This document shows, piece by piece, positions 5,149-60,092 of a stretch of 64,000 nt of DNA (the first letter of the stretch is position 1; every line of letters begins with the position of its first letter). The notes beneath the pieces are model-generated. The model had not been told where the DNA came from and ran no database searches. It saw only the letters and a list, made by a program, of their open reading frames with translations. Both the position numbers and the translations under genes were made by a program. The stretch is from Candidatus Firestoneibacteriota bacterium. GTDB taxonomy: Bacteria > Oederibacteriota > Muellerivitia > Muellerivitales > Muellerivitaceae. The DNA lies in the NCBI GenBank assembly GCA_013286205.1, contig JABDGD010000003.1:16558-80557 (forward strand), read 5' to 3'.

Positions 5149-5163
5149 CAAAGGAGAACCAGT

Positions 5164-5808
5164 ATGAAAATTGGAATTTTGGGTTCAGGGTTGATGGGTG
5201 GAAAACTGGGCACACTCTTCGCGAAAGCGGGACATGAAGTGATTTTCAGTTACGCCAAGACTACCGGAAAGCTGGAAAGGCTCGCGAAGGAAGCGGGGAA
5301 CAAGGCGAAAGCCGGAACCCCCGCCGAAGCCGCGCAGGGAGCGGATGTTCTTTTGCTGGCCGTGCATTGGTCCAAGACTGAGGATGTTTTGAAGAAGGCG
5401 GGTAATTTGTCAGGCAAAGTCATCATCACTTGCTCACTGCCCATGGACGTCCCGAACAGCAAGTTAGTTCTGGGTCTTACTACTTCGGGTGCGGAAGAAC
5501 TAGCGAAGATGGCTCCCAAAGCCAAAGTGGTTTCCGCTTTTAACACGGTTCCCAGTGAAGTGTTCTTCGGCGTTTTTGGCGCTCGTAAGAAAGCTGATAA
5601 GCCTAGTCTTGTCTATTGCGCGGATGACGCGGGGGCCAAGAAAACTGCCGCTAAGCTGATTGCAGACGTTGGGTTTGAACCTGTGGACCTTGGCGGACTC
5701 AAAAATGCCCGCTATACAGAGCCTTTAGCTTTGCTGATGGCCGAGATTGCTTATGGCGGGAAAAAGGGACCGGAAATGGCTTACCAGTTTAAGTGGTTTA
5801 AAAATTAA
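5164..5808 (+). CDS. NADP-binding oxidoreductase (F420-dependent NADP reductase / P5C-reductase-like)
   Basis: N-terminal dinucleotide-binding 'MKIGILGSGLMGGKLGTLFAKAGHEV'. The length of about 214 aa is typical of NpdG-like proteins. Confidence 0.6.
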   Translation: MKIGILGSGLMGGKLGTLFAKAGHEVIFSYAKTTGKLERLAKEAGNKAKAGTPAEAAQGADVLLLAVHWSKTEDVLKKAGNLSGKVIITCSLPMDVPNSKLVLGLTTSGAEELAKMAPKAKVVSAFNTVPSEVFFGVFGARKKADKPSLVYCADDAGAKKTAAKLIADVGFEPVDLGGLKNARYTEPLALLMAEIAYGGKKGPEMAYQFKWFKN

Positions 5809-5818
5809 GGAGGGCAGC

Positions 5819-6148
5819 ATGAACCAAGAACCTTCAGGGGTTAAAAAAATGTTCGGTGACTTAGCGCCGAAGCTGGTGGATTTGACCGACAACGTACTCT
5901 TTGGGGATGTGTGGGAAAGAAAAGAACTATCCAAACGGGATCGCAGTCTGGTGACGGTATCGGCTTTGGTGGCTTTGAACCGCACCGAACAACTGGGGCA
6001 TCATTTAGGGCGGGCACTGGACAATGGGGTTAAAAAAGAAGAATTGATTGAGGTTATTACGCATCTTGCCTTTTACTCGGGTTGGCCCTGTGCGATGAGC
6101 GCTATTACCATCGCGAAGGATGTGTTTTCGAAGAGAGAGGTCTCATGA
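5819..6148 (+). CDS. Carboxymuconolactone decarboxylase family protein (AhpD-like)
   Basis: CMD-domain pattern 'DRSLVTVSALVALNRTEQLGHHLGRALDNGVKKEELIEVITHLAFYSGWP'. The start was set at ATG 5819 with a perfect AAGGAGG SD, avoiding overlap with the upstream gene. Confidence 0.7.
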   Translation: MNQEPSGVKKMFGDLAPKLVDLTDNVLFGDVWERKELSKRDRSLVTVSALVALNRTEQLGHHLGRALDNGVKKEELIEVITHLAFYSGWPCAMSAITIAKDVFSKREVS

Positions 6149-6208
6149 GGTGGTTGAAAAGCGGAGGCCGTGGGGCGAAACTATCCGGGAAATGAAAGGT
6201 AATAAAAA

Positions 6209-7162
6209 TTGAAAACAACCTCTAAAAAAACTCAGCTACCGGCTATTGATTCAGAGGTTGATCTGGCACGATTGACTTCTCTGATTAAGAATTACTCACC
6301 TTACGACGGCAGTTTTGAGCAGAAAATCCCAGGAGTGCACACCATCCGCCGGTCCAAAATCAACGGCGAGTTGGTGCATGGTCTAGCGATTGCGGGTCTA
6401 TGTGTTGTGGCGCAGGGTTCTAAGAACGTGTTGTTGGGCCGGGAAGTTTTTAACTACGACGCCTCTAAGATGGTGGTTTATTCGGTAGATATGCCGCTGG
6501 CTTCCCAGGTGATGAAAGCCAGCCACGCTGAGCCCTTTCTCTGCGTGCGGATTGACCTGAACCCGCAAAAGATCGCGGAATTGACCTTAAAGGTTTATCC
6601 CCATGGCATCCCTCCGGTTCGTGAGAACCGTGCGGTTTATGTGGGCCGCTCTGACGCTAAAATTACCAGCGCAGCTATTCGCTTATTGGAATTACTCTCG
6701 CGCCCCGAAGAGGCCGAATTGCTCAGCCCGCTGATCATCGATGAAATTCTTATTCGCCTGCTTCGCAGCCCGCTGGGCTCCAGAGTGGCCCAAATGGGTC
6801 TGAAAAACTCAGGCCTTAATGGGGTTTCTAAATCGGTGGCCTGGTTACGCGGTAACTTTACCCACCCGGTCAAAATGGAACACTTGGCCAAGCTGGCCAA
6901 TATGAGCGCCTCAACCTTCCACAGTCATTTCAAGGCGGTCACCGCCATGAGTCCGTTACAGTTCCAAAAGGTTCTACGCCTTCAAGAGGCACGGCGCTTG
7001 ATGCTCTCTGCCATGATGGATGCGGGCATCGCCAGCCGTCAGGTGGGTTATGTAAGCGCCTCCCAGTTCAGCAGGGAATATGGACGGTTTTTTGGGGAAG
7101 CGCCGACGCAGGATATCGCCAAACTGCGTGAACAAATCTCTCCTGTCAGCGAGCTGGTTTAA
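6209..7162 (+). CDS. AraC-family transcriptional regulator
   Basis: C-terminal AraC HTH ('HLAKLANMSASTFHSHFKAVTAMSPLQFQKVLRLQEARRLM', 'ASRQVGYVSASQFSREYGRFFGEAP') with an N-terminal ligand-binding region. TTG start with a GAAAGG SD. Confidence 0.8.
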   Translation: MKTTSKKTQLPAIDSEVDLARLTSLIKNYSPYDGSFEQKIPGVHTIRRSKINGELVHGLAIAGLCVVAQGSKNVLLGREVFNYDASKMVVYSVDMPLASQVMKASHAEPFLCVRIDLNPQKIAELTLKVYPHGIPPVRENRAVYVGRSDAKITSAAIRLLELLSRPEEAELLSPLIIDEILIRLLRSPLGSRVAQMGLKNSGLNGVSKSVAWLRGNFTHPVKMEHLAKLANMSASTFHSHFKAVTAMSPLQFQKVLRLQEARRLMLSAMMDAGIASRQVGYVSASQFSREYGRFFGEAPTQDIAKLREQISPVSELV

Positions 7163-48336: not shown

Positions 48337-50316
48337 ATGTCTTCGCAAGATCAATCGATGACTTCATTACAAAAAGATTCCGCGGTCTTTCCGCCGCCGG
48401 CCAAGTTTGCCGCCAAGTCCTACGTCAATTCGCCTGAAAAATACCAACAGATGTACGACCGTTCTATCAACGATTCCCATAATTTTTGGATGGAACAGGC
48501 TGAAGAGTTCGCTTGGTTCAAGAAACCGACCAAAAGCCTCAAATATACCTGGGACACCAAGAAGCGCGTCATTGAACATACCTGGTTTGAAGACGGAGAA
48601 ATGAATGTGTCAGTGAATTGCCTGGACCGTCATCTTTCTACCCCGGTTAAAGATAAAGTCGCCATTATCTGGCAAGGCGAAAAGGACGAGGAAGTCCGCA
48701 AGATTACTTATAAAGAGCTGCACGAAGACGTTTGCAAGTTCACCAACGTTTTGATTTCCAAGGGAATCAAAAAGGGGGACCGCATTTGTATCTATATGCC
48801 CATGGTGCCCGAAGCGGCGGTGGCTTTGTTGGCTTGCGCCCGTTTAGGCGCGATTCACTCGGTGGTTTTCGGCGGTTTCAGCGCTGAATCCATCAAGAGC
48901 CGTATTCAAGACTCTGACAACGTGGCGGTCATCACGGCAGATATGGGTTTCCGCGCGGGTAAAGTGATACCCCTGAAGAACATTATGGATGAGGCTTTGA
49001 AAGACTGTCCGGGCATTAAGAACGTGATCGTTTTGAAGCGCGGCGACGGCAAGGTGAGCATTCAAGCGGGCCGCGATTTCTGGTGGCACGATGAAATGGC
49101 CAAGGCTAAACCAGAACATAAGGCTGAGGCCCACAAGGCTGAAGATCCTTTGTTTATCCTCTATACCTCCGGCTCCACCGGAAAACCCAAAGGTGTTCTG
49201 CATACGACCGCGGGTTATTTGATGCATGTTGCTTTGACTCATAAATACATCTTTGACTGGCATCCGGAAGATATCTATTGGTGTACGGCTGATATCGGCT
49301 GGGTGACGGGCCATAGCTATATCGTATACGGCCCTTTGGCCAACGGCGCGACGTCTTTGATGTTTGAAGGCGTGCCGAACTTCCCTGACGCGGGACGTTT
49401 CTGGCAGGTCGTGGCTAAACATAAAGTGAACATCTTTTACACCGCTCCTACGGCTATCCGCGCTTTGATGCGCGAAGGTGAAGAGTGGCCGAAGAAGTAT
49501 GATTTGAGTTCTTTGAAAGTTTTGGGCTCAGTCGGCGAACCGATCAACCCCGAAGCCTGGATGTGGTATTACCGCAACATTGGCCACAGCGAAACCCCGA
49601 TTGTGGATACCTGGTGGCAGACAGAGACGGGCGGATTCTTGATCGCGCCTTTTCCGGGAGCGACCACTTTGAAACCAGGCAGCGCCGGACGGCCTTTCTT
49701 TGGTGTGGAGCCGGTGGTTTTGCGCGATGACAATACCGAATGTAACCGTAATGAGGGCGGCAAGCTTTGCATCAAAAAGCCCTGGCCCGGCATTATGCGC
49801 ACGACCTATGGCGATCATGAGCGCTTCATCAATACTTATTTCGCGACCTTCAACGATATGTACTTCACGGGTGACGGCTGCCGCGTGGACCAGGACGGCG
49901 ACTATTGGCTGATGGGCCGGGTGGACGACGTGGTCAATATCTCAGGTCACCGCATTGGTACGGCGGAAGTGGAAAGCGCTTTGGTTTCTTTCCCTCAAAT
50001 CGCCGAATCGGCTGTGGTGGGCTATCCGCATGATATTAAGGGTTCGGCCCTTTACGCTTTCGTCATGCTCAAGGACGGCGTGCAATCGTCCGAAGAATTG
50101 AAAAAGCAAATTATCCAGCATGTCCGCAAGGAAATTGGGGCGATTGCCCAACCGGATAAGATTCAATTCGCCGATGGATTGCCCAAGACCCGCAGCGGCA
50201 AGATCATGCGCCGTATTCTGCGCAAGATCGCCGAAAACGACATGTCTAACCTGGGCGATATCTCTACCCTGGCGGACCCGACGGTGGTCGAAAAGCTGGT
50301 GCATGGCAAACAGTAA
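48337..50316 (+). CDS. acs: Acetyl-CoA synthetase (acetate--CoA ligase)
   Basis: 659 aa. AMP-binding motif '[21 protein letters not shown]', 'WWQTETGG', '[41 protein letters not shown]' and C-terminal '[17 protein letters not shown]'. Collinear with bacterial Acs. Confidence 0.92.
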
Positions 50317-50335
50317 GTGTTAGCTGAACAGAAAT

Positions 50336-50373
50336 AAAAAAAGCCTCTGTGAGAAATCACAGGGGCTTTTTTG
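50336..50373 (+). terminator. Rho-independent terminator after acs
   Basis: aaagcctctgtga-gaaa-tcacaggggct followed by TTTTTT. Confidence 0.8.
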
Positions 50374-50389
50374 TCTGAGGCAGTTACGG

Positions 50390-51541
50390 CTAGTAGAACA
50401 TGTAAGCGTCTAGCACCGTGCCGTAAAAGGGGCCGGTGGTATAGTTTGCCGCGCCCGCCGTCGGATCCATCCGTTGAACATCTAATTGGCACTTCAAGTT
50501 GCGCACTGGGTAACAGCGGAAGCTGACCACATCCCGGAAGCCGTCAAAGCTGGCGCTTAAACTAGTGTCGGTTAAGTATTCGTTTACGAAGCGCAGATAC
50601 ATATTTTTCCCCAGATCAACTTCAACACTGGCGTGGTAGGCGGTGTAGTTGTTTTGCGGTACGACGGCGCCGCTGACCACGGTGTCATAACCCGAGTCAA
50701 ACTCACCCAAAATGACAAATGGGCCCAAGTGCGTCCAACCGAAAGCGCCGTAGCGCAGGTTGGTTCCGTACTGGCCGGCCACGCCGTTGGGCGTGTTCTG
50801 GTCGTAAATAGATCCGCCCAATGTGACTTCTTTCAGATTGATGCCGCCCTTGGCGGAGAAATCTTTATCGTTAGATGCCGCCGGATCATTAAAGGCCGCG
50901 GCGTTTAGGAAGAAAATCCCTGGATAAATACCAACCTCAATACCATCGGTGCTGAAAAAGGGATTGTTGAAAGTTAAAACGTTGGTATTACTTAAGTCGC
51001 CGCGCACCAGGCTATTGTCATCGGCTAATTGCAGACCATAGGGTGTCGTGAAGCGGCCCAGTTTGATGTAGGCATCTTGCGGCAAACCCGAGATAAGACC
51101 GTAAGCCTCGGTGGGGGAATTAATATCCAGGCGATAAGTGAAAACGCCGGAGATGACTTCATTCGCTTTAATGCCGATAGAAAAGCTTTGGCGGCCAAGA
51201 GGAACAAAAGGCGAATTGGGGTTAAAAGAAGCCAGGGTGCCGGTCGGCGCGGGCATAAAAAGGGCGCCGAAGCTTTCGTGCAGATCGACTCCCGCGCTGA
51301 TGAAGGTCGGGGTTTTGTGGGTGAAGGCCTGGGCGGTTTCAGCGATGCCCTGCCAGTCGAAAGTTTTCAGGTCGTTGCCGTAATTGCGGCCAAAGTCGTT
51401 GCGCAAATATCCGCCGGTTTCATTCATGTGGCAGGCGTTACAGTTAACGCCCTGCCAGGCGGCCAGATAAGGTTCTGCCCAAAGATTCGAGATTCCCAGC
51501 GCCATCAGAAGGATAGTCAGAATTCCTATCTGCTTTTTCAT
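50390..51541 (-). CDS. Cyc2-like fused monoheme c-type cytochrome / outer-membrane beta-barrel porin
   Basis: Signal peptide (ILTILLMALGISNLWA), then 'EPYLAAWQGVNCNACHMNE'. That gives a single CxxCH heme motif about 10 residues into the mature protein, preceded by a PxL motif as in Cyc2 homologs. The remaining roughly 330 aa are beta-strand-patterned and end 'LDAYMFY' (an OMP beta-signal). Confidence 0.55.
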   Translation of the reverse strand: MKKQIGILTILLMALGISNLWAEPYLAAWQGVNCNACHMNETGGYLRNDFGRNYGNDLKTFDWQGIAETAQAFTHKTPTFISAGVDLHESFGALFMPAPTGTLASFNPNSPFVPLGRQSFSIGIKANEVISGVFTYRLDINSPTEAYGLISGLPQDAYIKLGRFTTPYGLQLADDNSLVRGDLSNTNVLTFNNPFFSTDGIEVGIYPGIFFLNAAAFNDPAASNDKDFSAKGGINLKEVTLGGSIYDQNTPNGVAGQYGTNLRYGAFGWTHLGPFVILGEFDSGYDTVVSGAVVPQNNYTAYHASVEVDLGKNMYLRFVNEYLTDTSLSASFDGFRDVVSFRCYPVRNLKCQLDVQRMDPTAGAANYTTGPFYGTVLDAYMFY

Positions 51542-51680
51542 GAAAACTCCTGTGAGCCAGTTTTGATTTGAGCGTCTTTTTATAGAGGTGATAACCCTGA
51601 TACTTTAACTATTGTGTTGGGTAGGTAAATGTTACTGCTAAAAACTGTTTATGGGGCCTGAAGACCCGCTAAATGGGGGG

Positions 51681-52451
51681 TTAGAATGTTCTGGCAACCA
51701 TTAATTCGGTAGTACTTGCGGGGGAGTCGCTGAGGGATTCGCCCAGTTCGAAAAGCCATTCACCCGGTTGGAAGGCGATCTGGGGGATGAAAGCCCAGGA
51801 CGACCGGCTATTGGGCGCGGTGACAGCGGTCAGATCAGCTTCCCCTTGGATATACCAATCCCGGCTCAAGTGATAGCCCAGGCCTGTATTGGCTTTCCAC
51901 TGATTTGGAACTCGGGGATCGATCCCGCCCTGATAGCCATAGTTTCCCTCAAGGTAGAGTTTTCCCATGCGGTAACCACCCAGAACACTGGCGGACCAAC
52001 TGCTTCCCATCCAGGGGAAGGTCGTATTGGGAATGGCGTAAGCTCCGCCGCCCTCAATTGAAAAAGCTCCAGCCGTTTCGCTGGACCATCCTCCGAAATG
52101 ATAGAACTCATAACGTAAGTTAAGTCCGATGGGAGCCAGGATCAGGGGAACCTGCCCGAGGGGGTACTGGGTGCTCAAGTTTGGAAAATCAACCTCTAAA
52201 GCCCAATCGTTCGCGATGGCGAATAAGCCCTCTCCATAAAGATAAAGCCAACGATTAGAGGAAGTGTTGTTATCGAATGAAGCTGAAAAATAGTAGCTGT
52301 TTTCGATTTGCGCTGAATCAGTTTCCAGGGTTCGAATGATGCCGGGGTCGTTTTCCTGGGCGGGCAGGGAGGATGGAAGAAGTGCTTGGGCAGCCGCGCA
52401 GGCGGCTAAAAGCAGGAGGGAAACACTTAAGCGGGCCGAGATTCGGGTCAT
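51681..52451 (-). CDS. Outer-membrane beta-barrel protein (no heme motif)
   Basis: Signal peptide (LSVSLLLLAACAAAQA), alternating aromatic/Gly strand pattern, and a C-terminal 'LMVARTF'. Co-oriented immediately upstream of the Cyc2-like gene. Confidence 0.5.
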   Translation of the reverse strand: MTRISARLSVSLLLLAACAAAQALLPSSLPAQENDPGIIRTLETDSAQIENSYYFSASFDNNTSSNRWLYLYGEGLFAIANDWALEVDFPNLSTQYPLGQVPLILAPIGLNLRYEFYHFGGWSSETAGAFSIEGGGAYAIPNTTFPWMGSSWSASVLGGYRMGKLYLEGNYGYQGGIDPRVPNQWKANTGLGYHLSRDWYIQGEADLTAVTAPNSRSSWAFIPQIAFQPGEWLFELGESLSDSPASTTELMVARTF

Positions 52452-52607
52452 GTGTTTGGTCTCCTTTCTGAGTAGTTTAGGCGCGGGCCCCTCAACCGCA
52501 AAAGTCTAACCCCGAAACCCAAGGTTCGCAACATGGGAAAGGCCCAACGCCCATAAAACGCATTTATTTTTCGAAACCAATTCCTCTTCCTTCCTCTATT
52601 ACTATAA

Positions 52608-53636
52608 TTGAATCCGCCTGCCAACCTATCTGCCGAGGAACCCATGCGTTTGCTCAACTTGATTTTCATCTGTGCCGCCTTCTTGTTTTTGACCGGCTGG
52701 GGACACTGGGGTCCCAATGTCAAAATTGGACTAGCGCTGGATAACGCTCAAATCCGTGAAACGCTCGTTCAAAAATTGAAGGAAGCGATGGAGGATAACC
52801 GCGCGGAACTTCTGGTGAAGGACGCGAAGGATGATCCGGCTGCCCAACGAAGTGAAGTTGAAGAAATGATCCAGCGGGGCATTCAGGTCCTGGTGGTGAT
52901 CCCCTGTGACCCCTCGAAGGCCTCAGCTCTGGTGAACGAGGCGCATCACGCTGGAATTAAAGTGATTTCCTTAAAAGGTCTTATTCCGGACAGCGATTTG
53001 GATTACCTGATCGCCTTCAATAATGAGAAGGCAGGAGAATTACAGGCGCGGGCTATGGTTAAGAAAGTTCCCCGGGGCCGGTATGTCCTGTTGGGGGGGG
53101 ACGCGGCGGAAGAGGCTTCTCAGAATATTCGAAAAGGCCAGATGAAGGTGCTGCAACCCCTGATTGACCAGGGAGATGTTCAAGTCGCCGCTTCAAAATG
53201 GGACGCCGGGCGGGAAATTGCGACTACTTTGAACAGCATCCTGACCCGTGAAAAAAATAAAATAGATGCCATTCTAGTTTCTGATGAGGAAAAGGCGGAG
53301 CAAGCTGCCCGGGTTCTGGAAAAATTAAATCTCACCTCACGAATAAGTATCGGGGGTTTGGGAGAAGATGTGAATACCTGCCGAAGAATTGCCTCCGGCG
53401 CCCAATGGATGACCATCTATCATCCGCCGCAAAAGCTGGCCGAGGAAACAGCCTACCTGGCGGCCAAATCGGCCCGGCAGGCCACGGAGTTTGATTGTCA
53501 ATTTGTCGAGATGGATAACGGTCCCCAAAAAGTAAAAGCCGTTCTTTTAACGCCGCTGGCGGTGAACGCTCAAAATTTAAAGTCGACAGTGATTAGCGAC
53601 GGGGTACAAAAAGAAGCGGATATTTTTAAAAAGTAA
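52608..53636 (+). CDS. Periplasmic sugar-binding-protein-fold (Peripla_BP / type I SBP) protein, orphan
   Basis: Signal/TM N-terminus, then 'KIGLALDNAQIRETLVQKLKEAMEDNRAELLVKDAKDDPAAQRSEVEEMIQRGIQVLVVIP', typical of ribose/xylose-binding-like SBPs. No adjacent ABC permease or ATPase. Confidence 0.6.
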   Translation: MNPPANLSAEEPMRLLNLIFICAAFLFLTGWGHWGPNVKIGLALDNAQIRETLVQKLKEAMEDNRAELLVKDAKDDPAAQRSEVEEMIQRGIQVLVVIPCDPSKASALVNEAHHAGIKVISLKGLIPDSDLDYLIAFNNEKAGELQARAMVKKVPRGRYVLLGGDAAEEASQNIRKGQMKVLQPLIDQGDVQVAASKWDAGREIATTLNSILTREKNKIDAILVSDEEKAEQAARVLEKLNLTSRISIGGLGEDVNTCRRIASGAQWMTIYHPPQKLAEETAYLAAKSARQATEFDCQFVEMDNGPQKVKAVLLTPLAVNAQNLKSTVISDGVQKEADIFKK

Positions 53637-53702
53637 GGGATTCTTGAAAGACGAAAAGTGGCTGCAACGAAGTTTTGAGATGTATTTAAGAAAAGGAAAA
53701 AT

Positions 53703-54371
53703 ATGAGTGCGCTAGACAGGGATGACCCGAGCCTGGACCGTATCGGCGCCTTTAGTGACGGGGTGTTCGCCTTTGCCATCACTTTATTGGTTCTGTCGAT
53801 CCGCATCCCGCATCCAACCGACGCCGACGCCGCCCAGGGACTGCTGTCCCTTTTGGCCCAACAGTGGAGGACTTACCTTGTCTACGCCCTCAGCTTCATG
53901 AATATTGGAATCAACTGGACGAACCACCGGATGATGTTCTCAACCTTCAAACGCGCCGACCACACCCTCGTTTGGCTCAATCTTTTGTACCTGATGGTAG
54001 GGGTGGCTTTTATGCCCGTCCCGACGGCGGTACTGGGTGCGTGGCTGGGGGATCCCCAAAACCAGGTCACCGCCACCGTGTTCTACGGAGCTTCCGCTTT
54101 TCTCGGAGGGTTAGTTTATAACGTGGTTTGGTGGTACGGGGCCTACTGCGCCAAGCTCACTTCTGCGGCGCTCACCGCAGCCAAACGGCGGGCCCACACA
54201 CTGGCCTGGGCTCCAGCTCCGCTTTTCGCTATCGCGCTTACGGCGGTTGCCTTCGGGTATCCCGGTCTGGCGGTGGCCGGCTATGTGACTGTTGTTTTCG
54301 CGTATGTATTGCCGCTTCCGAGGTTGTTGGCGATGGTGCGGCGGCGCAGCGATTGGAGAATAAAAGGATAA
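53703..54371 (+). CDS. DUF1211 / TMEM175-like membrane protein (second paralog)
   Basis: 'RIGAFSDGVFAFAITLLVLSIRIPHP' matches the DUF1211/TMEM175 RxxxFSDGVFAIAITLLVLE signature. About 6 TM helices. Confidence 0.7.
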   Translation: MSALDRDDPSLDRIGAFSDGVFAFAITLLVLSIRIPHPTDADAAQGLLSLLAQQWRTYLVYALSFMNIGINWTNHRMMFSTFKRADHTLVWLNLLYLMVGVAFMPVPTAVLGAWLGDPQNQVTATVFYGASAFLGGLVYNVVWWYGAYCAKLTSAALTAAKRRAHTLAWAPAPLFAIALTAVAFGYPGLAVAGYVTVVFAYVLPLPRLLAMVRRRSDWRIKG

Positions 54372-54433
54372 GCGGCAGGTTCAATCATCTTAAAATCTTA
54401 TCCACGGCGGGGACCCGGCTCCGCTTTTATAAT

Positions 54434-55129
54434 CTATTTTCTCCAGCGGGCGAACCAGTAGCCGCCGATCCAGATCGGGAGGAAGATCAGCGTCAACATC
54501 GGCATCAGATGGTCTACCAGCATGTGGCAGGTTTCCCAGCGGGCGCAATGAAGTTGTATGGTTCCCGCTCCCAAAAGAAAGGCTGAGACTCCCAGCCAGG
54601 CTCCGGTCCATCTCGGATGGAAAGAAGCGTTCCGAGAAGCCATCCAGCCCAAGATTAACCACGTTGGCAAGGCGACCAATACCATGGTTCGAGCGCAAAA
54701 CCATTCATCAGCCCTGTCGCGCGCCAATGCTTGCGCGAGAGCGGATGTCTCGAAAAACAAAAAGGGCATGCTAAAAAGAAACAGGATGAGGATGCCCGCG
54801 ATCACTCGGGGGGCGGTACGAGGCCGGTAATCCGGCATGCTTGAGGCGATGCCCATCCGGGCGGTGAAAGCGGCCAGGACGAAAGCGAGCAGCAAGAATC
54901 CGCCTGACGAAAGGTCAGTGAGTCTTTCCTGAAGTTCGAATTGGGGTCCGATCAGCGAAAGGGTGAGGGCTACCGCCAGAAGAGAAAAAACTAACCAAAC
55001 CAGCCATTGCCCGAGAACCGTAGGCGCCGTTGGGGTAGATTTATTTTCAGCCACAAGTTTTTCCACCAAATCCCGGTGGGATTTGGGCAGGGAGTTTTTG
55101 ATGGGTTTAGAGTGAATCGATTCGCTCAT
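54434..55129 (-). CDS. Membrane anti-sigma factor, DUF1109 (NrsF-like) family
   Basis: It sits immediately downstream of the ECF sigma with a 4-nt overlap. Cytoplasmic N-terminus 'DLVEKLVAENKSTPTAPT', about 6 TM helices, and the C-terminal Cys/His pattern 'HCARWETCHMLVDHLMP' typical of DUF1109. Confidence 0.6.
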   Translation of the reverse strand: MSESIHSKPIKNSLPKSHRDLVEKLVAENKSTPTAPTVLGQWLVWLVFSLLAVALTLSLIGPQFELQERLTDLSSGGFLLLAFVLAAFTARMGIASSMPDYRPRTAPRVIAGILILFLFSMPFLFFETSALAQALARDRADEWFCARTMVLVALPTWLILGWMASRNASFHPRWTGAWLGVSAFLLGAGTIQLHCARWETCHMLVDHLMPMLTLIFLPIWIGGYWFARWRK

Positions 55130-55686
55130 TCGCTTTTTTCCACTTTAGTTTTAAGAATCTTCTTTAAAAGAGCGTATCCGCGATGAGCCCTCACCCTGAG
55201 GGCGGCCTGGGATATGCCCAGCGTTTTCGCCGCTGTTTCTACACTCATTCCTTTTAACTTCAACATTTCTACCGCCTGCCGGTTCATCTCAGGTATGGAC
55301 TCCAGAGCCTGTTGAATCAGGTCGTCGAGTCCGCCGTCCGCCGTCTCCAGAGCGGCGATGTCGAAAAAGTCCTCCAAAGGAACCTCGCGCTGGACGATCT
55401 TGTGGTTTTTTTTCAAAGCCGCCCAAATGGCGTTTCGAATCACCGCGAAGAACCAGGGAGGGAAAGGCAGATCGCTCCGGTAACTATGCTTGGCCTTGTG
55501 AAACGATAAAAGCACTTCCTGAAACACATCATCCACGTGGTCCTGATGGAAGACCCTTTTATGGACGAAATTATAGATTAAGGGACTCATTTCCAGCAAA
55601 AGGCGCTCATAAGCGTCCTTGTCGCCGGCCTGAGTCAGTTTCATCAACTGGGTCCAGGCTTGCCATTGGGCGTCATTGAAATCCAA
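55126..55686 (-). CDS. ECF (sigma-70 family, group IV) RNA polymerase sigma factor
   Basis: Region 2 'FQEVLLSFHKAKHSYRSDLPFPPWFFAVIRNAIWAALKK'. Region 4 'ESIPEMNRQAVEMLKLKGMSVETAAKTLGISQAALRVRAHRGYALLKK'. Confidence 0.85.
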   Translation of the reverse strand: MDFNDAQWQAWTQLMKLTQAGDKDAYERLLLEMSPLIYNFVHKRVFHQDHVDDVFQEVLLSFHKAKHSYRSDLPFPPWFFAVIRNAIWAALKKNHKIVQREVPLEDFFDIAALETADGGLDDLIQQALESIPEMNRQAVEMLKLKGMSVETAAKTLGISQAALRVRAHRGYALLKKILKTKVEKSE

Positions 55687-55860
55687 GGGCTAAGGCTCCT
55701 TATTCATGAATAGTGGGTGTCCGGCTGTAATGTTACCCCATCTGGAAAAAATATGATGGGGCTTCAGTAACATTTCGCCGGTTGGAGTAATACACATCAC
55801 CAAGAGCTCATCCCGTTCGGGGATGCGGCCGGCCGAATCTCAAAAGCCCTGGAGGCTGAC

Positions 55861-56283
55861 GTGAAAAACATACTTGTTTTGAGCTTTTTGCTTTGTTCCT
55901 TAATCTTGGTGGCGATGGCTTGTTCCCAGCAAAGCACTCCGACAACCACTCCGGCTTCGGCTACCGCGACGCCAACACCATCCATACAGACAATCTCTTA
56001 TGGCGGCGCCACCAATTACAGTCCGTCTGCGGTGACCATTACGCACGGTCAATCCGTAATTTGGGATTCGAGTTTGGCCGGTCATACAGTTCTTTTAGAT
56101 AACTATACGGGAACAGGGACCACCTGCGGTTCTTCCACTAACTACAGCTCTTTCCCCGTAACGGTAAATTTTCCGACAGCAGGCACTTATTATTTTCATT
56201 GCACAGTTCCAGGGCATTCGCCTTGTGGATCGGGAACCTGCGGCACCTGTACGGGTATGGCGGGTTCTGTGCAGGTTAATTAA
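55861..56283 (+). CDS. Cupredoxin (type-1 copper, plastocyanin/rusticyanin-like) lipoprotein with Cys-rich insertion in the ligand loop
   Basis: Lipoprotein signal (LILVAMAC) and a Thr/Pro linker. The cupredoxin C-terminus 'YYFHCTVPGH-SPCGSGTCGTCT-GMAGSVQVN' can be compared with plastocyanin 'YYCSPHQGAGMVGKVTVN' and rusticyanin 'CQIPGH..GM'. The Cys, His and Met ligands, plus an upstream His ('AGHTV'), are all present, with an extra C-x4-C-x2-C insert. Confidence 0.65.
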   Translation: MKNILVLSFLLCSLILVAMACSQQSTPTTTPASATATPTPSIQTISYGGATNYSPSAVTITHGQSVIWDSSLAGHTVLLDNYTGTGTTCGSSTNYSSFPVTVNFPTAGTYYFHCTVPGHSPCGSGTCGTCTGMAGSVQVN

Positions 56284-56346
56284 TCACCAGGATTCAAGCC
56301 GGGTTTTTAATGGAATTAAAAATCCCAACAGGTAAAGGCGAGCGCT

Positions 56347-56994
56347 GTGAATGAGAAAAGTCTTTTTCAATTAGCGGCGCTCTCGCTTTTATTGGCTCTG
56401 GGAATGGGGCTGGGTTGTACTAAAAATGTTTCGGTTTCTCCGACGATGCCGTTTGTTTTAACCAGCACCAATACGGCCGCCCCTGTTATTACCAATACTT
56501 TCACAGTCACCGCTACCAATACGGTGACAGCCACCAATACAGCGACTTCGCCCTATACCCTGACGAACACTCCCACGAATACCAATACGCCGACGATTAC
56601 CAATACTCCCACCGATACACCCACCATGACTTTTACTGATACGGCTACTCTGACACCGACGGCTACCCAAGTAACGCTGACTTATCTTTTTAATACCTAC
56701 ATCAACACTCCGATTGGCAGCAGCCGCCAGTGCAGTTCATGCCACAGCGCAGGCTTTCCGCCGGACCCGACTTCGGCCAATACTTTCTGGAGCACGACGG
56801 TGGGCCAGACCGCTTCTTTTGGCTGCGCGACCCTGCGGGTAAATCCGGGGGATAACACGACCAGCGCCCTTTATCTGCGTTTGGCGGGTTTGGGCTGTTC
56901 CCCCCAGATGCCCAATGGCGGGCCGACCTATTTAAACGCGTCCCAGCTGGCCGAGGTAGCGGCCTGGATTAATGAAGGGGCTTTAAATAATTGA
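56347..56994 (+). CDS. Monoheme c-type cytochrome lipoprotein
   Basis: Lipobox 'ALGMGLGC', a Thr-rich linker (TNTATSPYTLTNTPTNTNTPTITNTPTDTPT), and a C-terminal domain with the 'QCSSCHS' CxxCH heme site plus a candidate distal Met in 'CSPQMPNGG'. Confidence 0.6.
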   Translation: MNEKSLFQLAALSLLLALGMGLGCTKNVSVSPTMPFVLTSTNTAAPVITNTFTVTATNTVTATNTATSPYTLTNTPTNTNTPTITNTPTDTPTMTFTDTATLTPTATQVTLTYLFNTYINTPIGSSRQCSSCHSAGFPPDPTSANTFWSTTVGQTASFGCATLRVNPGDNTTSALYLRLAGLGCSPQMPNGGPTYLNASQLAEVAAWINEGALNN

Positions 56995-57048
56995 GGCTTA
57001 GTGAGGTTTTTTGGGCAGTTTGTTGACGAAAAAAGGGGAGTGAAAACC

Positions 57049-57153
57049 ATGAAAATTATCATTTTGGTGCTATCGTTGTTGGTGTTAGGTTTATCCGTGA
57101 CGGCTTGCGGAAACAATAACAGCCCGACGTCTTCCAAGAACAGCGGTTATTAA
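57049..57153 (+). CDS. Putative 34-aa small lipoprotein (not in ORF track)
   Basis: ATG preceded by a strong SD (AAAGGGGAG). It encodes MKIIILVLSLLVLGLSVTACGNNNSPTSSKNSGY, a lipobox followed by a short tail. Confidence 0.3.
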   Translation: MKIIILVLSLLVLGLSVTACGNNNSPTSSKNSGY

Positions 57154-57211
57154 GCTTTTGGCGGGTATTCGATTTTAAAACAACTATCCCAATCCATTAA
57201 AAAAAGGATTC

Positions 57212-57685
57212 GTGATGAAAAAAATGATTTTAAGAATATCGATTTTTATTTCGCTGGTCTTAGTGGCCGCGGCTTGCACCGTTAATACGAGCGTTAATAA
57301 CCCGGTGGTGATGACGCCTACGCCAACGCCGGTTGTGACCGCGACGCCCACAGCCACTCCGGGAACTGGAATTGGAGCCACTATTAGTTTGGGCGCGGGC
57401 CCGACCTTTAGCCCTTCCGGGGTCACCATTATTCACGGCCAGTCTGTGGTCTGGGATGGTTCTTTGGGAGTAGGATCGCACAATTTAACGTTAGATAATT
57501 TTTCGGGCACTACGGGATCTTGCGCGCCGACTATCAATACAACGTCTTTCCCGGTAACTCAGGTATTTCCAACGGTGGGTACCTATTATTATCATTGTGG
57601 TTTCCATGGAGGATGCGGCTCGGGCGTCTGCGGTGTTTGCAGCGGCGGCATTTCTAACATGATTGGCTTTGTTCAGGTTAATTGA
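57212..57685 (+). CDS. Cupredoxin lipoprotein paralog with Cys-rich ligand-loop insertion
   Basis: Lipobox 'LVLVAAAC'. 'YYYHCGFHGG-CGSGVCGVCSGG-ISNMIGFVQVN' has the same architecture as 55861..56283, including an identical C-x4-C-x2-C spacing in the insert and an upstream 'GSHN' His. Confidence 0.65.
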   Translation: MMKKMILRISIFISLVLVAAACTVNTSVNNPVVMTPTPTPVVTATPTATPGTGIGATISLGAGPTFSPSGVTIIHGQSVVWDGSLGVGSHNLTLDNFSGTTGSCAPTINTTSFPVTQVFPTVGTYYYHCGFHGGCGSGVCGVCSGGISNMIGFVQVN

Positions 57686-57714
57686 CGGCTTAAAGGGTTT
57701 TTAGGGCCTTGTTT

Positions 57715-57754
57715 AGCGGAGATGTGACATTGGTCAAATCTCCGCTATTTTTTT
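57715..57754 (+). terminator. Rho-independent terminator after cupredoxin paralog 2
   Basis: agcggagat-(14 nt)-atctccgct is a perfect 9-bp stem, followed by ATTTTTTT. Confidence 0.75.
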
Positions 57755-57869
57755 GCCTAAAGATGGGGTTTATGAGACCTTTTATCAGTGAAGATGAAAC
57801 TCTATATTTACTTGAAACGTCTAAATAGTAAGATCGATTTCTCGAATCCAAGGTTTTTGGAGGCTTCCC

Positions 57870-58976
57870 ATGAAAAAAGTTATTCTCTTAGCGTTAATTG
57901 CCGTTTTACTGCCCAGCTTGCTTTTGGCCCAGGAAGATAGAGGCGGCCGCGGCGAAAGAGGAGGGGATAGGGGGGGCGATCGCGCCAGCTCCTATGAAGG
58001 CTCGGGTGGCGGTTCGCCTCGCGCGGAAGGTTACCGGTCCGCAAGATCCGTTTCTCCCCGTTATCGATCCATGGGTGTGCGTAGTTACCCGAAAACTGTA
58101 GTCCGGAGCAAATTATTAGTGGCCGGCCGTGAACGTTCGTCGATTGCTTTTCCCGCTAGCGGACCCCACGGCGCGGCGTTGAACGCTCGCGTGGTGGCGC
58201 GTACCTCTATTAGCGGCAATCCCCTCATTAGAAGCCACATGTCGATCATTGCCGGGCCGTCTTTCAGAGCCCAGATTAATGTCTTCAACCGAAACGAAAG
58301 AGTGGTTGGCCAATACTATTGGCACACGGGCAATGGTTTTAATTACTGTCATTACTACGACCGCTGGGGTTATCACTGGTATGGCTGGTATTTGGGAAAC
58401 AATTATTTCTGGACCCGCTGGTACGCGAACAACTATTGGTGGTATGACCCCGCCTATTACCGCTGGTGCTACTGGCACGACGGCGGATGGTGGTGGCAGG
58501 ATCCGGATACGACCACGGTTTATATCTATAACAACGGCAGCTATGTATCGCCCGACGGACAGGTTGACGTGAACGTCAATTCTGACTCGCAGGCCGCGCT
58601 TCCGTCAGAGTCCGCTCCGCCCACTTCGAAAAATGTTTATAACAGCAAAGATGGAACCCGGCAGGTGAAAGTGGTGGGCAATGACGCCTTCTTATATGAC
58701 ATCTCGGGGGATAATGCTTTTAAACCGATTTTCATGGGTTCTAATGTGACCGGCGCGAAGTTTTCTAATTCGCAAAACGGAGGCGCTCTTCAAATTATGC
58801 TTTTATACGCGGACGGAAGTTTTGGATTGTTTGATGATATGGGAAACTCCATGAGCGGCGGCAATAGCGGCGCGACCAACCAGCCGGCTAGCGGCACGGG
58901 GGGCAATCAGCAAAATCCCCCTCCGCCCAATGGGCCTCAAGGCAATCCGCCGAACGTCCCTGGTTCGGGTACCTGA
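57870..58976 (+). CDS. Secreted Gly/Arg-rich and Trp/Tyr-rich low-complexity protein
   Basis: Signal peptide, 'RGGRGERGGDRGGDR', then the segment 'WGYHWYGWYLGNNYFWTRWYANNYWWYDPAYYRWCYWHDGGWWWQD', which has about 20 W/Y in 50 aa. Pro/Gly/Asn-rich C-terminus. Confidence 0.5.
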   Translation: MKKVILLALIAVLLPSLLLAQEDRGGRGERGGDRGGDRASSYEGSGGGSPRAEGYRSARSVSPRYRSMGVRSYPKTVVRSKLLVAGRERSSIAFPASGPHGAALNARVVARTSISGNPLIRSHMSIIAGPSFRAQINVFNRNERVVGQYYWHTGNGFNYCHYYDRWGYHWYGWYLGNNYFWTRWYANNYWWYDPAYYRWCYWHDGGWWWQDPDTTTVYIYNNGSYVSPDGQVDVNVNSDSQAALPSESAPPTSKNVYNSKDGTRQVKVVGNDAFLYDISGDNAFKPIFMGSNVTGAKFSNSQNGGALQIMLLYADGSFGLFDDMGNSMSGGNSGATNQPASGTGGNQQNPPPPNGPQGNPPNVPGSGT

Positions 58977-58977
58977 G

Positions 58978-59214
58978 TTAAGCCAAAGCCTTTTCCAAAT
59001 CGCCGATTCGAGGGTTAATGAGTATCTTGCCCTCGATTTCGACGGTGGGGATCACCCGCTTGCCGTTGGTGTAGCCCATCATGGTTTTATAATCCGCGTC
59101 ATTCTGCTCTATGTCCCGTTCTTCATAAGGGATGTTTCGTTCCTTCAGAGCATTCTTCAAATTACGGCAGTCTCCGCACCAGGATGTGGTGTACATAATG
59201 ATTTTTTTGGTCAT
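58978..59214 (-). CDS. Glutaredoxin-like (NrdH/mycoredoxin-type) small redox protein
   Basis: 78 aa. 'IIMYTTSWCGDCRNLKNAL' is a CxxC thioredoxin-fold N-terminal motif. The length and pattern are typical of NrdH/glutaredoxin-like proteins. Confidence 0.7.
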   Translation of the reverse strand: MTKKIIMYTTSWCGDCRNLKNALKERNIPYEERDIEQNDADYKTMMGYTNGKRVIPTVEIEGKILINPRIGDLEKALA

Positions 59215-59318
59215 CGTTCTCCCCTTTGTTCATCCCTAATTTACGTCGGCTCACTTGTTTTTTTCCAGTCCTGCTGGCTATATAGACAGGTCTTTTAAAC
59301 AAACCCAAGGAGATTGAT

Positions 59319-60092
59319 ATGAGTAAATGGCTTTTCTCGCTGGTGTTGATGATGTTGGTTAGCCCTCTCTTCGCCAAAGTAGTCACTCAGACGGTAGAAT
59401 ATAAAGACGGAAATCAGGCCCTGGAAGGTTATTTGGTTTATGACGATGCCACGACGGACAAACGCCCGGGCGTCCTGGTGTTTCACGCGTGGGATGGGAT
59501 CGGCGAACATGTAAAGGATAGCGCGAATAAACTGGCGAAAATGGGCTATGCGGCCTTCATCGCCGATGTTTATGGCAAAGGTGTTCATCCCGCGAGCCCG
59601 GCGGAGTTTAAAGCTCAAGCCGGAAAGTATTTTGCCGACCGTAAATTGATGCGCTCCAGAGCCCAAGCGGCGATGGACGCGTTGTCACAAGACCCCAGGG
59701 TGGACGGCTCGAAGATCGCGGCTATCGGTTATTGCTTTGGCGGCGCGGTTTCCCTGGAATTGGGACGCAGCGGAGCTCCTCTGGCGGCCATCGCGACCTT
59801 CCATGGTTCGCTGGCTAACCCCACCCCGGCGGACGACGCTAACATCAAGGCTAAGGTGCTGATTCTCCAGGGGGGCGATGATAAATTCACGCTGGGCGAT
59901 GTGCCGGCCATGGAAAAGAGCTTCAAAGATAATAAGGTGGATTACAAACTGGTCACCTACCCGGGCGCGGTTCATGGCTTTACCGAACCACAGTACAAGG
60001 GCGATATGCCGGGTTTGAAATATGACACTAAGGCCGACAAGGCTTCCTGGAAAGAAATGAAGAAGCTCTTTGCTGAGGTCTTCAAGTCTTGA
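59319..60092 (+). CDS. Secreted dienelactone hydrolase family protein
   Basis: Signal peptide. 'GVLVFHAWDGIGEHV', 'GYCFGG' (nucleophile elbow with Cys) and 'GGDDKFT...HGF' match DLH family blocks. Confidence 0.8.
   Translation: MSKWLFSLVLMMLVSPLFAKVVTQTVEYKDGNQALEGYLVYDDATTDKRPGVLVFHAWDGIGEHVKDSANKLAKMGYAAFIADVYGKGVHPASPAEFKAQAGKYFADRKLMRSRAQAAMDALSQDPRVDGSKIAAIGYCFGGAVSLELGRSGAPLAAIATFHGSLANPTPADDANIKAKVLILQGGDDKFTLGDVPAMEKSFKDNKVDYKLVTYPGAVHGFTEPQYKGDMPGLKYDTKADKASWKEMKKLFAEVFKS

Follow-up and report, generated by a model that had tools for sequence, protein, structure and literature searches.

The window, by which the whole 64-kb stretch of DNA analysed here is meant, comes from an uncultured peat-bog bacterium and contains two genes for lipoprotein cupredoxins, cupA and cupB, with a gene for a cytochrome c lipoprotein sitting between them. 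On the opposite strand are found an ECF sigma factor gene, a gene for an NrsF-family membrane anti-sigma factor, whose start overlaps the stop of the sigma gene, and two genes for secreted proteins, one of which is a fused monohaem cytochrome-porin (Table 1). The two cupredoxins are paralogs (44% identity, E=5e-32 in a sequence comparison), and both open reading frames are present as the first-pass annotation of this DNA had described them.

Table 1. Features of the cupredoxin locus (positions are those of the window)
Feature	Position	Strand	Remarks
Cytochrome-porin, 383 aa	50390..51541	-	Monohaem cytochrome fused to a porin; a signal peptide is followed by CNACH (residues 34-38) and 16 predicted beta strands
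Promoter-like motif, third exact copy	51610..51635	-	GTAACATT-N14-AATA, some 70 bp before the cytochrome-porin gene
Secreted protein, 256 aa	51681..52451	-	Ends ...ARTF; conserved neighbour in the module
Anti-sigma factor, 231 aa	54434..55129	-	NrsF-family membrane protein; PF06532 NrsF 7.4e-14, 52.5 bits (cutoff 26.8)
ECF sigma factor, 186 aa	55126..55686	-	Divergent from cupA; Sigma70_r2 2.8e-9 and Sigma70_r4_2 4.3e-9, above cutoffs
Promoter-like motif, inverted	55711..55736	-	GTAACATT-N14-ACTA; precedes the ECF sigma gene and is a candidate promoter for its autoregulation
Promoter-like motif, ECF-type	55767..55792	+	GTAACATT-N14-AATA, some 70 bp before cupA; conservation extends to L001, L002 and L005
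cupA	55861..56283	+	140-aa lipoprotein cupredoxin; GTG start 7 nt 3' of GGAGG
cupA Cys89 codon	56125..56127	+	His75+14; putative disulfide partner of Cys127
cupA insert, Ser120-Gly132	56218..56256	+	SPCGSGTCGTCTG; between His119 and axial Met133, holds Cys122, Cys127 and Cys130
Cytochrome c lipoprotein, 215 aa	56347..56994	+	Lipobox Cys24 (GLG-C24), T/N/P-rich linker, C-terminal monohaem domain
cupB	57212..57685	+	157-aa lipoprotein cupredoxin, paralog of cupA
Secreted protein, 368 aa	57870..58976	+	W/Y/G-rich; downstream of cupB

Both cupredoxins carry export signals of the Sec lipoprotein type, with no twin-arginine motif. Their lipoboxes are VAMA-C21 in CupA and AAAA-C22 in CupB, the fit to the PROSITE-type rule being judged by eye; the lipobox Cys is invariant in the 19 sequences compared and, in CupA, is followed by an S/T/P linker. 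The full set of type-1 copper ligands which had been claimed for the pair is found in each, namely His75, Cys114, His119 and Met133 in CupA and His90, Cys129, His132 and Met150 in CupB, and the motif strings quoted in the first-pass annotation (HCTVPGHSPCGSGTCGTCTGMAGSVQVN and HCGFHGGCGSGVCGVCSGGISNMIGFVQVN) match the sequence exactly. The distance from the ligand Cys to the following His is canonical (4 residues in CupA, 2 in CupB), but the segment between this His and the axial Met, with 13 residues in CupA and 17 in CupB instead of the usual 2-4, is too long for the spacing Cys-x(2-4)-His-x(2-4)-Met. As had also been noticed, the loop contains three additional Cys at identical spacing, C-x4-C-x2-C, which in CupB are Cys135, Cys140 and Cys143. 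A fourth extra Cys, overlooked at that stage, lies upstream of the loop at position +14 from the first ligand His (His1+14) in both paralogs, being Cys89 in CupA and Cys104 in CupB.

The AlphaFold2 model is that of a cupredoxin, with the Greek-key beta-sandwich predicted and with plastocyanin, pseudoazurin and amicyanin as the best structural matches; the possibility, raised at the outset, that these proteins might lack the cupredoxin sandwich does not apply. Confidence in the predicted model is lowest at the insert and the upstream Cys loop (pLDDT 59-75, the insert itself 67-75). The ligands of CupA and CupB align with those of plastocyanin, and the plastocyanin profile alignment stops at the insert. 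Scans of both proteins with Pfam and NCBIfam gave weak generic cupredoxin matches and no family-level assignment: in the Pfam comparison that had been recommended, PF00127 fits neither paralog above its gathering threshold (19.6 bits against 21.2 for CupA, no match for CupB), and none of the NCBIfam models for plastocyanin, rusticyanin and halocyanin comes near its cutoff. Rusticyanin is among the sequence matches of the cupredoxins. CupA and CupB are most likely electron carriers with type-1 (blue) copper that are tethered to the membrane and belong structurally to the plastocyanin/amicyanin class, the ligand set of the predicted fold suggesting copper binding. They differ from plastocyanin, amicyanin and pseudoazurin (PF00127) in the long His-Met spacer, in the four extra Cys and in being lipoproteins with an S/T/P linker.

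Two other copper sites were considered and rejected. A CuA-like binuclear centre requires that two Cys precede the His (C-x3-C-x3-H-x2-M), and the extra Cys of CupA and CupB come after the His. The idea that the 'HC' pair bridges to a second copper through its His and Cys, in the manner of nitrite reductase, was discarded because 'YHC' is also present in amicyanin and in many short-loop relatives.

A profile search collected 71 long-loop members from the best 150 of 862 profile matches, mostly from candidate division FCPU426 and from unclassified MAGs. In the 71-sequence alignment the ligand His, Cys and His are each conserved at 100%, the axial position is Met in 66 sequences (93%), and every sequence has the first and last loop Cys; conservation on this scale indicates that the pattern of Cys and ligands is not a product of chance. 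The His-Met spacer of the family ranges from 12 to 23 residues, the first loop Cys being separated from the His by a fixed distance of 2-3 residues and the last usually from the Met by 2, and the loop is rich in G, S and T, with no further conserved side chains. No Pfam or NCBIfam model fits the family, and literature searches brought up no description of a long cupredoxin ligand loop that contains Cys or is stapled by disulfides, in agreement with the earlier remark that no such insertion was known from described cupredoxin families; the titles and abstracts listed in a search for survey papers on FCPU426 make no mention of these genes. Judged from its sequences, an unnamed cupredoxin family is characterised by this insert, which is thus no local oddity.

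The extra Cys had been read as either a second metal site or disulfides, and their distribution in the family bears on the choice. The upstream Cys (Cys89 in CupA) and the middle loop Cys (Cys127) are both present in 61 of the 71 members and both missing from the other 10, one never occurring without the other; counted as upstream and loop Cys, 59 sequences have one and three, and ten have none and two, while two members, P0032 and P0037, contain a fifth extra Cys. On an NJ tree the Cys89/Cys127 pair has been lost twice independently, in subclade B and in P0038. Moreover, the internal spacing of the loop Cys varies among the 61 four-Cys members (3-11 and 2-6 residues): C-x4-C-x2-C is the commonest combination, yet it is found in 21 of them, and the middle and last Cys are separated by two residues in 30. 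Co-loss, variable spacing and the Sec/lipoprotein signals together favour two disulfides and disfavour a second metal or Fe-S site, so that the disulfide half of the earlier reading is favoured and the metal half is argued against. The pairing suggested by the Cys co-variation is probably correct, and the extra Cys most likely do not bind metal.

A second metal site formed by the four extra Cys could be a structural Zn(Cys)4 centre, a cluster of Cu(I) and thiolates or a [2Fe-2S] cluster of the plant-ferredoxin kind. C-x4-C-x2-C...C is the spacing of plant-type ferredoxins, and its exact presence in both window proteins, together with its rank among the spacing combinations, the retention of all four Cys in 61/71 members and a faint Pfam Fer2 match at CupA residues 120-137 (E=0.24), speaks for such a site. 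However, the ten members with only two of the four Cys, which belong to two independent lineages, keep all the copper ligands, the spacing is not fixed and the loop has no further conserved residues of ligand type, while the Fer2 match is far below threshold in a protein whose predicted fold is cupredoxin and not beta-grasp. Furthermore, Fe-S proteins are exported folded through Tat, whereas these signal peptides are of the Sec type, and under the oxidising conditions outside the cytoplasm disulfides are more to be expected than thiolates. A second metal site is thus considered quite improbable, and the plant-type [2Fe-2S] ferredoxin reading was rejected on the spacing (21/61), the Fer2 score, the fold and the signal without RR.

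With two disulfides, a bond joining the loop Cys at His+3 and Met-3, the first and the last of the three, would pinch the base of the excursion, which would keep His and Met in ligand geometry, and the middle loop Cys, at the tip, would be bonded to the Cys at His1+14, pinning the excursion to the neighbouring loop. The stapled loop would lie over the copper-site end and may shape the partner docking surface, the solvent exposure of the copper and stability outside the cytoplasm. The putative bond from the tip to the neighbouring loop resembles that of the phytocyanins (cucumber basic protein 2cbp, plantacyanin, mavicyanin, stellacyanin). In cucumber basic protein, matched by CupA in BLASTP at E=2e-5, Cys52 lies at His1+13, within about two residues of the position of CupA Cys89, and its partner Cys85 is likewise in the His-Met segment. 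Phytocyanins are plant proteins with one disulfide, a loop of normal length (His-x4-Met/Gln) and a different N-terminal region, whereas two disulfides and a loop of 13-17 residues are proposed here, the partner of the upstream Cys being the middle loop Cys and not the one nearest the His.

In the same BLASTP alignment Cys85 of cucumber basic protein falls on CupA Cys122 and not on Cys127, as would be expected if the topology were instead a phytocyanin-like Cys89-Cys122 bond plus a local Cys127-x2-Cys130 bond, the latter perhaps redox-active like the CxxC of thioredoxin; the x2 spacing of middle and last Cys in 30/61 members is also in keeping with it. Under such pairing Cys89 and Cys122, or Cys127 and Cys130, should be lost together, and neither is observed in the 71 sequences, in which it is Cys89 and Cys127 that disappeared together on two occasions; moreover, with 2-6 residues between the middle and last Cys, CxxC is not conserved. 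This topology is regarded as distinctly unlikely. The cluster of Cys89, Cys122, Cys127 and Cys130 lies three residues from two of the copper ligands, and a more speculative idea, of low probability, is that it constitutes a second redox centre coupled electronically or conformationally to the type-1 copper, for instance a Cu(I)-thiolate site or a disulfide/dithiol pair with redox activity. It could then gate the one-electron chemistry of the copper or couple it to a two-electron chemistry of thiols, perhaps serving as a switch that responds to oxidants or metals in an NrsF-controlled, Cyc2-like extracellular electron-transfer pathway of FCPU426.

In the blue copper field the copper site is held to owe its geometry and properties to the length of the C-terminal ligand loop; in nature the His-Met spacer comprises 2-4 residues, and the six-residue Cys-His spacer of AcoP was reported as unprecedented (PMC4059628). 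A family with His-Met spacers of 12-23 residues, apparently held by two disulfides, extends the known range several-fold and provides a natural test of the tolerance of the type-1 site to loop expansion, and the stapled excursion one of the effects on redox potential, solvent access and partner docking.

As regards the neighbouring genes, the cytochrome c lipoprotein has the haem motif C129-SS-C132-H133, a candidate axial Met188 and further Cys at 160 and 184. It shows weak Cytochrome_CBB3/Cytochrom_C matches (its ortholog in L006 matches PSCyt1 at E=1e-3), and its gene adjoins cupredoxin genes in the loci L001, L005, L006, L007 and L009. The first-pass annotation was silent on this CSSCH gene, which falls within the span that it described. 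Neither Pfam nor NCBIfam assigned the cytochrome c, the cytochrome-porin or the 256-aa protein to a particular family. The cytochrome-porin has the architecture of Cyc2, that is, a signal peptide, a single N-terminal CXXCH, a 16-strand porin and a length of at least 365 aa, and it shares with Cyc2 the 16-stranded porin with OprP as best structural match (PMC8406198). The Cyc2 signature consists of AxPxFAR[Q/K][T/Y], placed 5 aa before CXXCH, and PXL, placed 4 aa after it (PMC8406198); it is absent from the 383-aa protein, whose sequence there is EPYLAAWQGVNCNACHMNETGGYL, read as EPYLAAWQGVN-CNACH-MNETGGY round the haem motif. Membership of Cyc2 was rejected on these motifs, and the protein is Cyc2-like in architecture.

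The ECF sigma factor, with regions 2 and 4, and the adjoining PF06532 anti-sigma factor form a pair of the SigF/NrsF type, like that of Caulobacter crescentus, where the gene for an ECF sigma factor shares a transcript with that for a six-helix anti-sigma factor of the NrsF family; the sigma gene is found in the same position in L001, L002, L003, L005, L015 and L017. The promoter-like motif occurs three times in the window, against 0.24 matches expected. The copy before the cytochrome-porin gene is also present upstream of the ortholog in L002 (at 4565, minus strand), GTAACC-N16-CCTA precedes cupredoxin genes in L006, L007 and L008, and the GTAACATT motif does so in L015. A -35-like element GTAAC(A/C) followed by N16 recurs before sigma, cupredoxin and porin genes, with AATA, ACTA or CCTA as the -10-like element. 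The sigmaF motif of Caulobacter, given as GTAACC-N16-CGAA in PMC3511200, has the same -35-like GTAAC and N16, and differs in its -10 (CGAA, against A[AC]TA or CCTA here). A scan of 50000-59400 for intrinsic terminators and sigma-70 promoters returned fewer sites than shuffled sequence and no operon boundaries. The module appears to be transcribed from putative ECF-type promoters under the adjacent sigma/NrsF pair, a dependence suggested by the recurrent motif. The SigF regulon of Caulobacter holds sulfur-metabolism and oxidoreductase genes and is not known to contain cupredoxins. Sulfur-metabolism genes are named as part of it in PMC3511200.

The shared motif and the gene neighbourhood point to an extracytoplasmic electron-transfer module. 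CupA and CupB would work with the intervening cytochrome c lipoprotein and the Cyc2-like outer-membrane cytochrome-porin as one chain, analogous to that from Cyc2 via rusticyanin to cytochrome c in Acidithiobacillus, and the direction and substrate of electron flow would be those suggested by the analogy. In Acidithiobacillus ferrooxidans, rusticyanin and AcoP, the latter noted for its unusually long ligand loop (PMC4059628), are cupredoxins likewise encoded and working with the outer-membrane fused cytochrome-porin Cyc2 and c-type cytochromes. Within the 64-kb window no terminal oxidase or other acceptor is encoded. As a whole, the best explanation of the locus, to which we assign a probability of roughly 0.6, is that of disulfide-stapled type-1 copper carriers in an ECF-controlled extracytoplasmic electron-transfer chain.

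NrsF-type systems are presented in PMC3511200 and PMC4436054 as stress regulators responding to metals or hypochlorite, and under such regulation a respiratory chain fits less well than a defence function. The cupredoxins might then be metal- or oxidant-stress defence factors instead of respiratory carriers: either CopI-like periplasmic buffers or oxidases for copper or thiophilic metals, or Cys proteins with redox activity whose synthesis the NrsF/ECF system induces, with a sacrificial or metal-binding loop. The tight and repeated linkage of the genes to the NrsF-type anti-sigma/ECF pair is consistent with this, as are the response of the NrsF system to chromate and cadmium in Caulobacter (PMC3511200) and to hypochlorite in other bacteria (according to abstracts), a faint NCBIfam CopI match (E=0.14), and peroxiredoxin genes which adjoin the sigma/NrsF cluster in L017/L018 and lie near the porin in L019. 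On the other hand, the complete type-1 ligands and the constant c-type cytochrome and cytochrome-porin partners argue for electron transfer, the His/Met-rich tracts of CopI-type proteins are absent, and the Cys co-variation indicates structural pairs; a purely defensive role is hence judged unlikely. The two roles are not exclusive, and a stress-induced electron-transfer chain is possible.

In genomic terms, the family marks a conserved, unannotated gene set (fused cytochrome-porin, one or more cupredoxins, cytochrome c lipoprotein and ECF/NrsF pair) in a peat/soil candidate phylum without cultured members, the layout of which parallels the Cyc2-rusticyanin iron-oxidation chain. For want of the Cyc2 motif, the set would escape the marker definitions now in use. 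If the module does move electrons across the outer membrane, more organisms and proteins would have to be considered in peatland iron and redox cycling.

Finally, the two other secreted proteins recur with the module. The 256-aa protein is probably a small outer-membrane beta-barrel, on the basis of its sequence, with a weak Porin_4 match and orthologs in L001, L002, L005, L006, L015 and L017. The 368-aa protein has no Pfam or NCBIfam match, and two tandem homologs of it follow cupB in L002 and L003.

The interval 55861-57685, which the first-pass annotation had read as two genes, contains three co-oriented ones: cupA and cupB, encoding the lipoprotein cupredoxins CupA and CupB, and between them a gene for a lipoprotein whose long T/N/P linker leads to a monohaem cytochrome c domain (CSSCH) at the C terminus. 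The paralogy proposed for cupA and cupB stands (44% identity, E=5e-32), and the sequence strings quoted for them match both products exactly. In each product the signal peptide terminates at a lipobox Cys (Cys21 in CupA, Cys22 in CupB); an S/T/P-rich linker then leads into a domain some 97-105 residues long. Downstream of the cytochrome c gene and ahead of cupB, a short ORF gives a product ending in MKIIILVLSLLVLGLSVTACGNNNSPTSSKNSGY, a lipoprotein signal peptide with 14 residues after it; the ORF may be the remnant of another lipoprotein gene or encode a tiny lipopeptide.

Coordinates of the genes, ORFs and promoter-like motifs in the window
Feature	Position	Strand	Remarks
Fused monohaem cytochrome-porin	50390-51541	-	383 aa; signal peptide, CNACH, 16-strand OprP-like barrel
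GTAACATT-N14-AMTA	51610-51635	-	upstream of cytochrome-porin ORF
Secreted protein, end ...ARTF	51681-52451	-	256 aa; weak Porin_4 match only
TMEM175-family potassium channel homolog	53703-54371	+	PF06736, 4e-25
NrsF-family anti-sigma gene	54434-55129	-	PF06532, 52.5 bits
ECF sigma gene	55126-55686	-	divergent from cupA
GTAACATT-N14-AMTA	55711-55736	-	upstream of ECF sigma operon
GTAACATT-N14-AMTA	55767-55792	+	upstream of cupA
cupA	55861-56283	+	140 aa
Cytochrome c lipoprotein gene	56347-56994	+	215 aa, between cupA and cupB
Short ORF	57001-57153	+	
cupB	57212-57685	+	157 aa
Secreted protein	57870-58976	+	368 aa; R/G-rich N-terminal part, W/Y-rich core, e.g. YYWHTGNGFNYCHYYDRWGYHWYGWYLGNNYFWTRWY

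Sequence models barely detect the two proteins as cupredoxins: the Pfam Copper-bind score of cupA, 19.6 bits, is under the cutoff of 21.2, and cupB has no match; models for plastocyanin, rusticyanin and halocyanin from NCBIfam stay far under their cutoffs. The structural evidence, drawn from a predicted model, is clear. The AlphaFold2 model of the cupA domain, with a 17-sequence alignment as input, is an all-beta sandwich (mean pLDDT 83), and Foldseek matches it to auracyanin A, pseudoazurin and plastocyanin in the PDB with probability 1.0; its lowest-confidence parts are the upstream-Cys loop (pLDDT 59) and the insert (67-75), the expanded stretch between ligand His and axial Met. Moreover, the family profile matches plastocyanin 1pcs (E=2e-6); the alignment pairs the first His and the Cys of 'YxC' and ends exactly at the insert start. 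The full type-1 set claimed earlier is found as candidate ligands (His75/Cys114/His119/Met133 in CupA, His90/Cys129/His132/Met150 in CupB). Cupredoxin assignment, ligand set and novel insert are all upheld. The C-x4-C-x2-C triad is likewise present, but in both proteins a fourth extra Cys, 14 residues past the first His, had been overlooked; the extra cysteines are Cys89/Cys122/Cys127/Cys130 in CupA and Cys104/Cys135/Cys140/Cys143 in CupB.

CupA and CupB represent an undescribed, putatively disulfide-stapled long-loop cupredoxin subfamily; the redox gene set around them is unannotated and belongs to an uncultured phylum. Searching 5.8 billion proteins by word index returned only 17 relatives, called 'plastocyanin' where named. 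With a full HMMER profile run against 1.84 billion cluster representatives, 862 matches came in at E<=1e-3. Among the best 150 of these 862, which were inspected, about 48 single-domain representatives have the long Cys loop, a few matches have long Cys-free loops, and multi-domain matches show ordinary short loops of 2-7 residues without Cys. Four multi-domain profile matches (P0066, P0084, P0126, P0156) carry a different His-Met loop, Cys-free and 15-24 residues long (for example H-VARADAAPGVVDANIGLGE-M), and therefore expansion of this loop has occurred more than once. Genome collections added members in MAGs of candidate division FCPU426 (bog, soil) and in unclassified MAGs.

In the family alignment (n=71), no sequence lacks the first His, the ligand Cys, the second His, or the first or last loop Cys (71/71), and the upstream and middle loop Cys each occur in 61/71. 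At the axial position 66 members have Met, 3 have Leu (locus L010 and matches P0101 and P0150) and 2 have Glu (P0086, P0089); Glu there would be atypical of a type-1 site. The gap from His to axial residue spans 12-23 residues, against 2-4 in canonical cupredoxins. The Pfam and NCBIfam scans gave no model fitting such a long Cys loop, now seen in 71 members, and the literature search found no paper describing one. In blue and red cupredoxins 2-4 residues separate Cys from His, the six-residue spacing of AcoP having been 'never reported' before, and ligand-loop length dictates site structure (PMC4059628).

The extra cysteines had been proposed to form either a second metal site or disulfides, and their chemistry, read here from sequence and co-variation, is the main uncertainty. 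Co-variation is the decisive observation. One upstream and three loop Cys occur in 59 sequences, none and two in 10, and an additional upstream Cys in 2; one sequence is a truncated fragment. Scored per alignment column, Cys89 and Cys127 (cupA numbering) are jointly present or jointly absent in 71/71; in the neighbour-joining tree their double loss arose twice, once in a nine-member clade with Cys127 replaced by Tyr, and once in P0038, whose closest relatives are four-Cys proteins. Among the three pairings of four cysteines, this pattern fits only Cys89-Cys127 with Cys122-Cys130, so disulfides are favoured and a metal site disfavoured. Loop geometry agrees: the first loop Cys always lies 2-3 residues past the ligand His and the last 2 residues ahead of the axial Met in 50/71, while spacing between loop Cys varies (3-11 and 2-6 residues), and apart from these Cys the loop is rich in Gly/Ser/Thr, with no conserved side chains. 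A base disulfide would keep His and Met near canonical separation, with the excursion bulging outward, and a tip disulfide would pin it to the loop after the first ligand strand.

The two-disulfide arrangement is reminiscent of phytocyanins. Cucumber basic protein (query identical to 2cbp) matches cupA by BLASTP at E=2e-5, and its disulfide, Cys52-Cys85, joins a Cys 13 residues past ligand His39 (+14 in the window proteins) to one in the His-Met segment. BLASTP pairs Cys85 with Cys122, not Cys127, and for this reason a topology of Cys89-Cys122 plus Cys127-x2-Cys130 retains some probability; it is quite unlikely, since the co-losses it predicts are absent from the family.

Decidedly improbable are the metal-site readings (Fe-S, Zn, Cu(I) thiolate). 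C-x4-C-x2-C is also the plant-type ferredoxin spacing, and a faint Pfam Fer2 match (E=0.24) lies exactly over the insert cysteines; however, that spacing is kept in only 21/61 four-Cys members, two Cys suffice in 10, and the fold has no beta-grasp. Fe-S proteins are exported folded via the Tat pathway, so the Sec-type lipoprotein signals, with no twin-arginine motif, also count against a [2Fe-2S] cluster. A Zn or Cu(I) thiolate site in the four-Cys forms is harder to exclude, although disulfides are the more parsimonious choice in an oxidising compartment outside the cytoplasm.

CupA and CupB, their expanded ligand loop braced by two disulfides, would be tethered blue-copper electron carriers, partnered by the tethered monohaem cytochrome c and the outer-membrane cytochrome-porin in an extracytoplasmic electron-transfer module switched on by the ECF sigma/NrsF pair; this is the best-supported prediction (probability about 0.62). 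CxxCH or type-1 copper motifs occur in the window only in these four proteins, and no terminal oxidase genes were found near the module. Together with the porins, a heptosyltransferase gene speaks for a diderm cell envelope. The cytochrome-porin has the architecture of Cyc2 but neither AxPxFAR[QK][TY] nor the PXL motif; Cyc2 family membership was therefore dropped, the protein being Cyc2-like in design only, and its 71 homologs found are all 'hypothetical' or unnamed. Its orthologs lie directly downstream of a long-loop cupredoxin in two related loci (L006, L019); in the window, L002, L005 and L015, cytochrome-porin and long-loop cupredoxin are within about 1-4 kb of each other. The cytochrome c lipoprotein has homologs alongside the cupredoxins in L001, L005, L006, L007 and L009. 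The module would work like the Acidithiobacillus Cyc2 - rusticyanin - cytochrome c chain, with members of other families; candidate substrates are Fe(II), another metal or an oxidant, and electrons might pass in one direction or the other.

Among the neighbours, the 256-aa protein, conserved beside the PBP-NrsF-ECF cluster in L001, L002, L005, L006, L015 and L017, is probably a small outer-membrane barrel of the module. The 368-aa protein matches nothing in Pfam or NCBIfam, and its homologs form a tandem duplicate after cupB in L002 and L003. A Haem_bd (PF14376) gene lies beside the cupredoxin cluster in L006 (5143-5616, -) and L001 (10169-10603, +); tblastn found no counterpart in the window.

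The divergent sigma/NrsF arrangement is seen again in all related loci whose flanks are long enough (L001, L002, L003, L005, L015), and the cupA-sigma intergenic region carries a conserved inverted pair of GTAACATT elements. GTAACATT-N14-AMTA has 3 exact copies in the 64 kb window, where 0.24 would be expected, which points to a small ECF regulon. For Caulobacter sigmaF, experiments define the motif GTAACC-N16-CGAA (PMC3511200), and the more distant L006, L007 and L008 have GTAACC-N16-CCTA just upstream of the long-loop cupredoxin gene. NrsF systems are known as sensors of metal and oxidant stress (PMC3511200; PMC4436054), which makes defence, instead of respiratory electron transfer, a serious if unlikely rival. 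The TMEM175 homolog, flanked by NrsF and the periplasmic binding protein gene, also has a relative near the L006 cupredoxin.

Finally, one L015 protein (4686-6929, +) combines an N-terminal long-loop cupredoxin domain without lipid anchor, about 600 residues of T/S/P repeats and linker, and a C-terminal 'YPNPVNG...' domain resembling a secretion-sorting tail; the V/G/E-rich ORFs called on the opposite strand are spurious. Lipoprotein linkers reach 150-430 residues in L007 and L008, and these long linkers, together with the sorting-like tail, indicate that some members may be exposed far from the membrane or at the cell surface.
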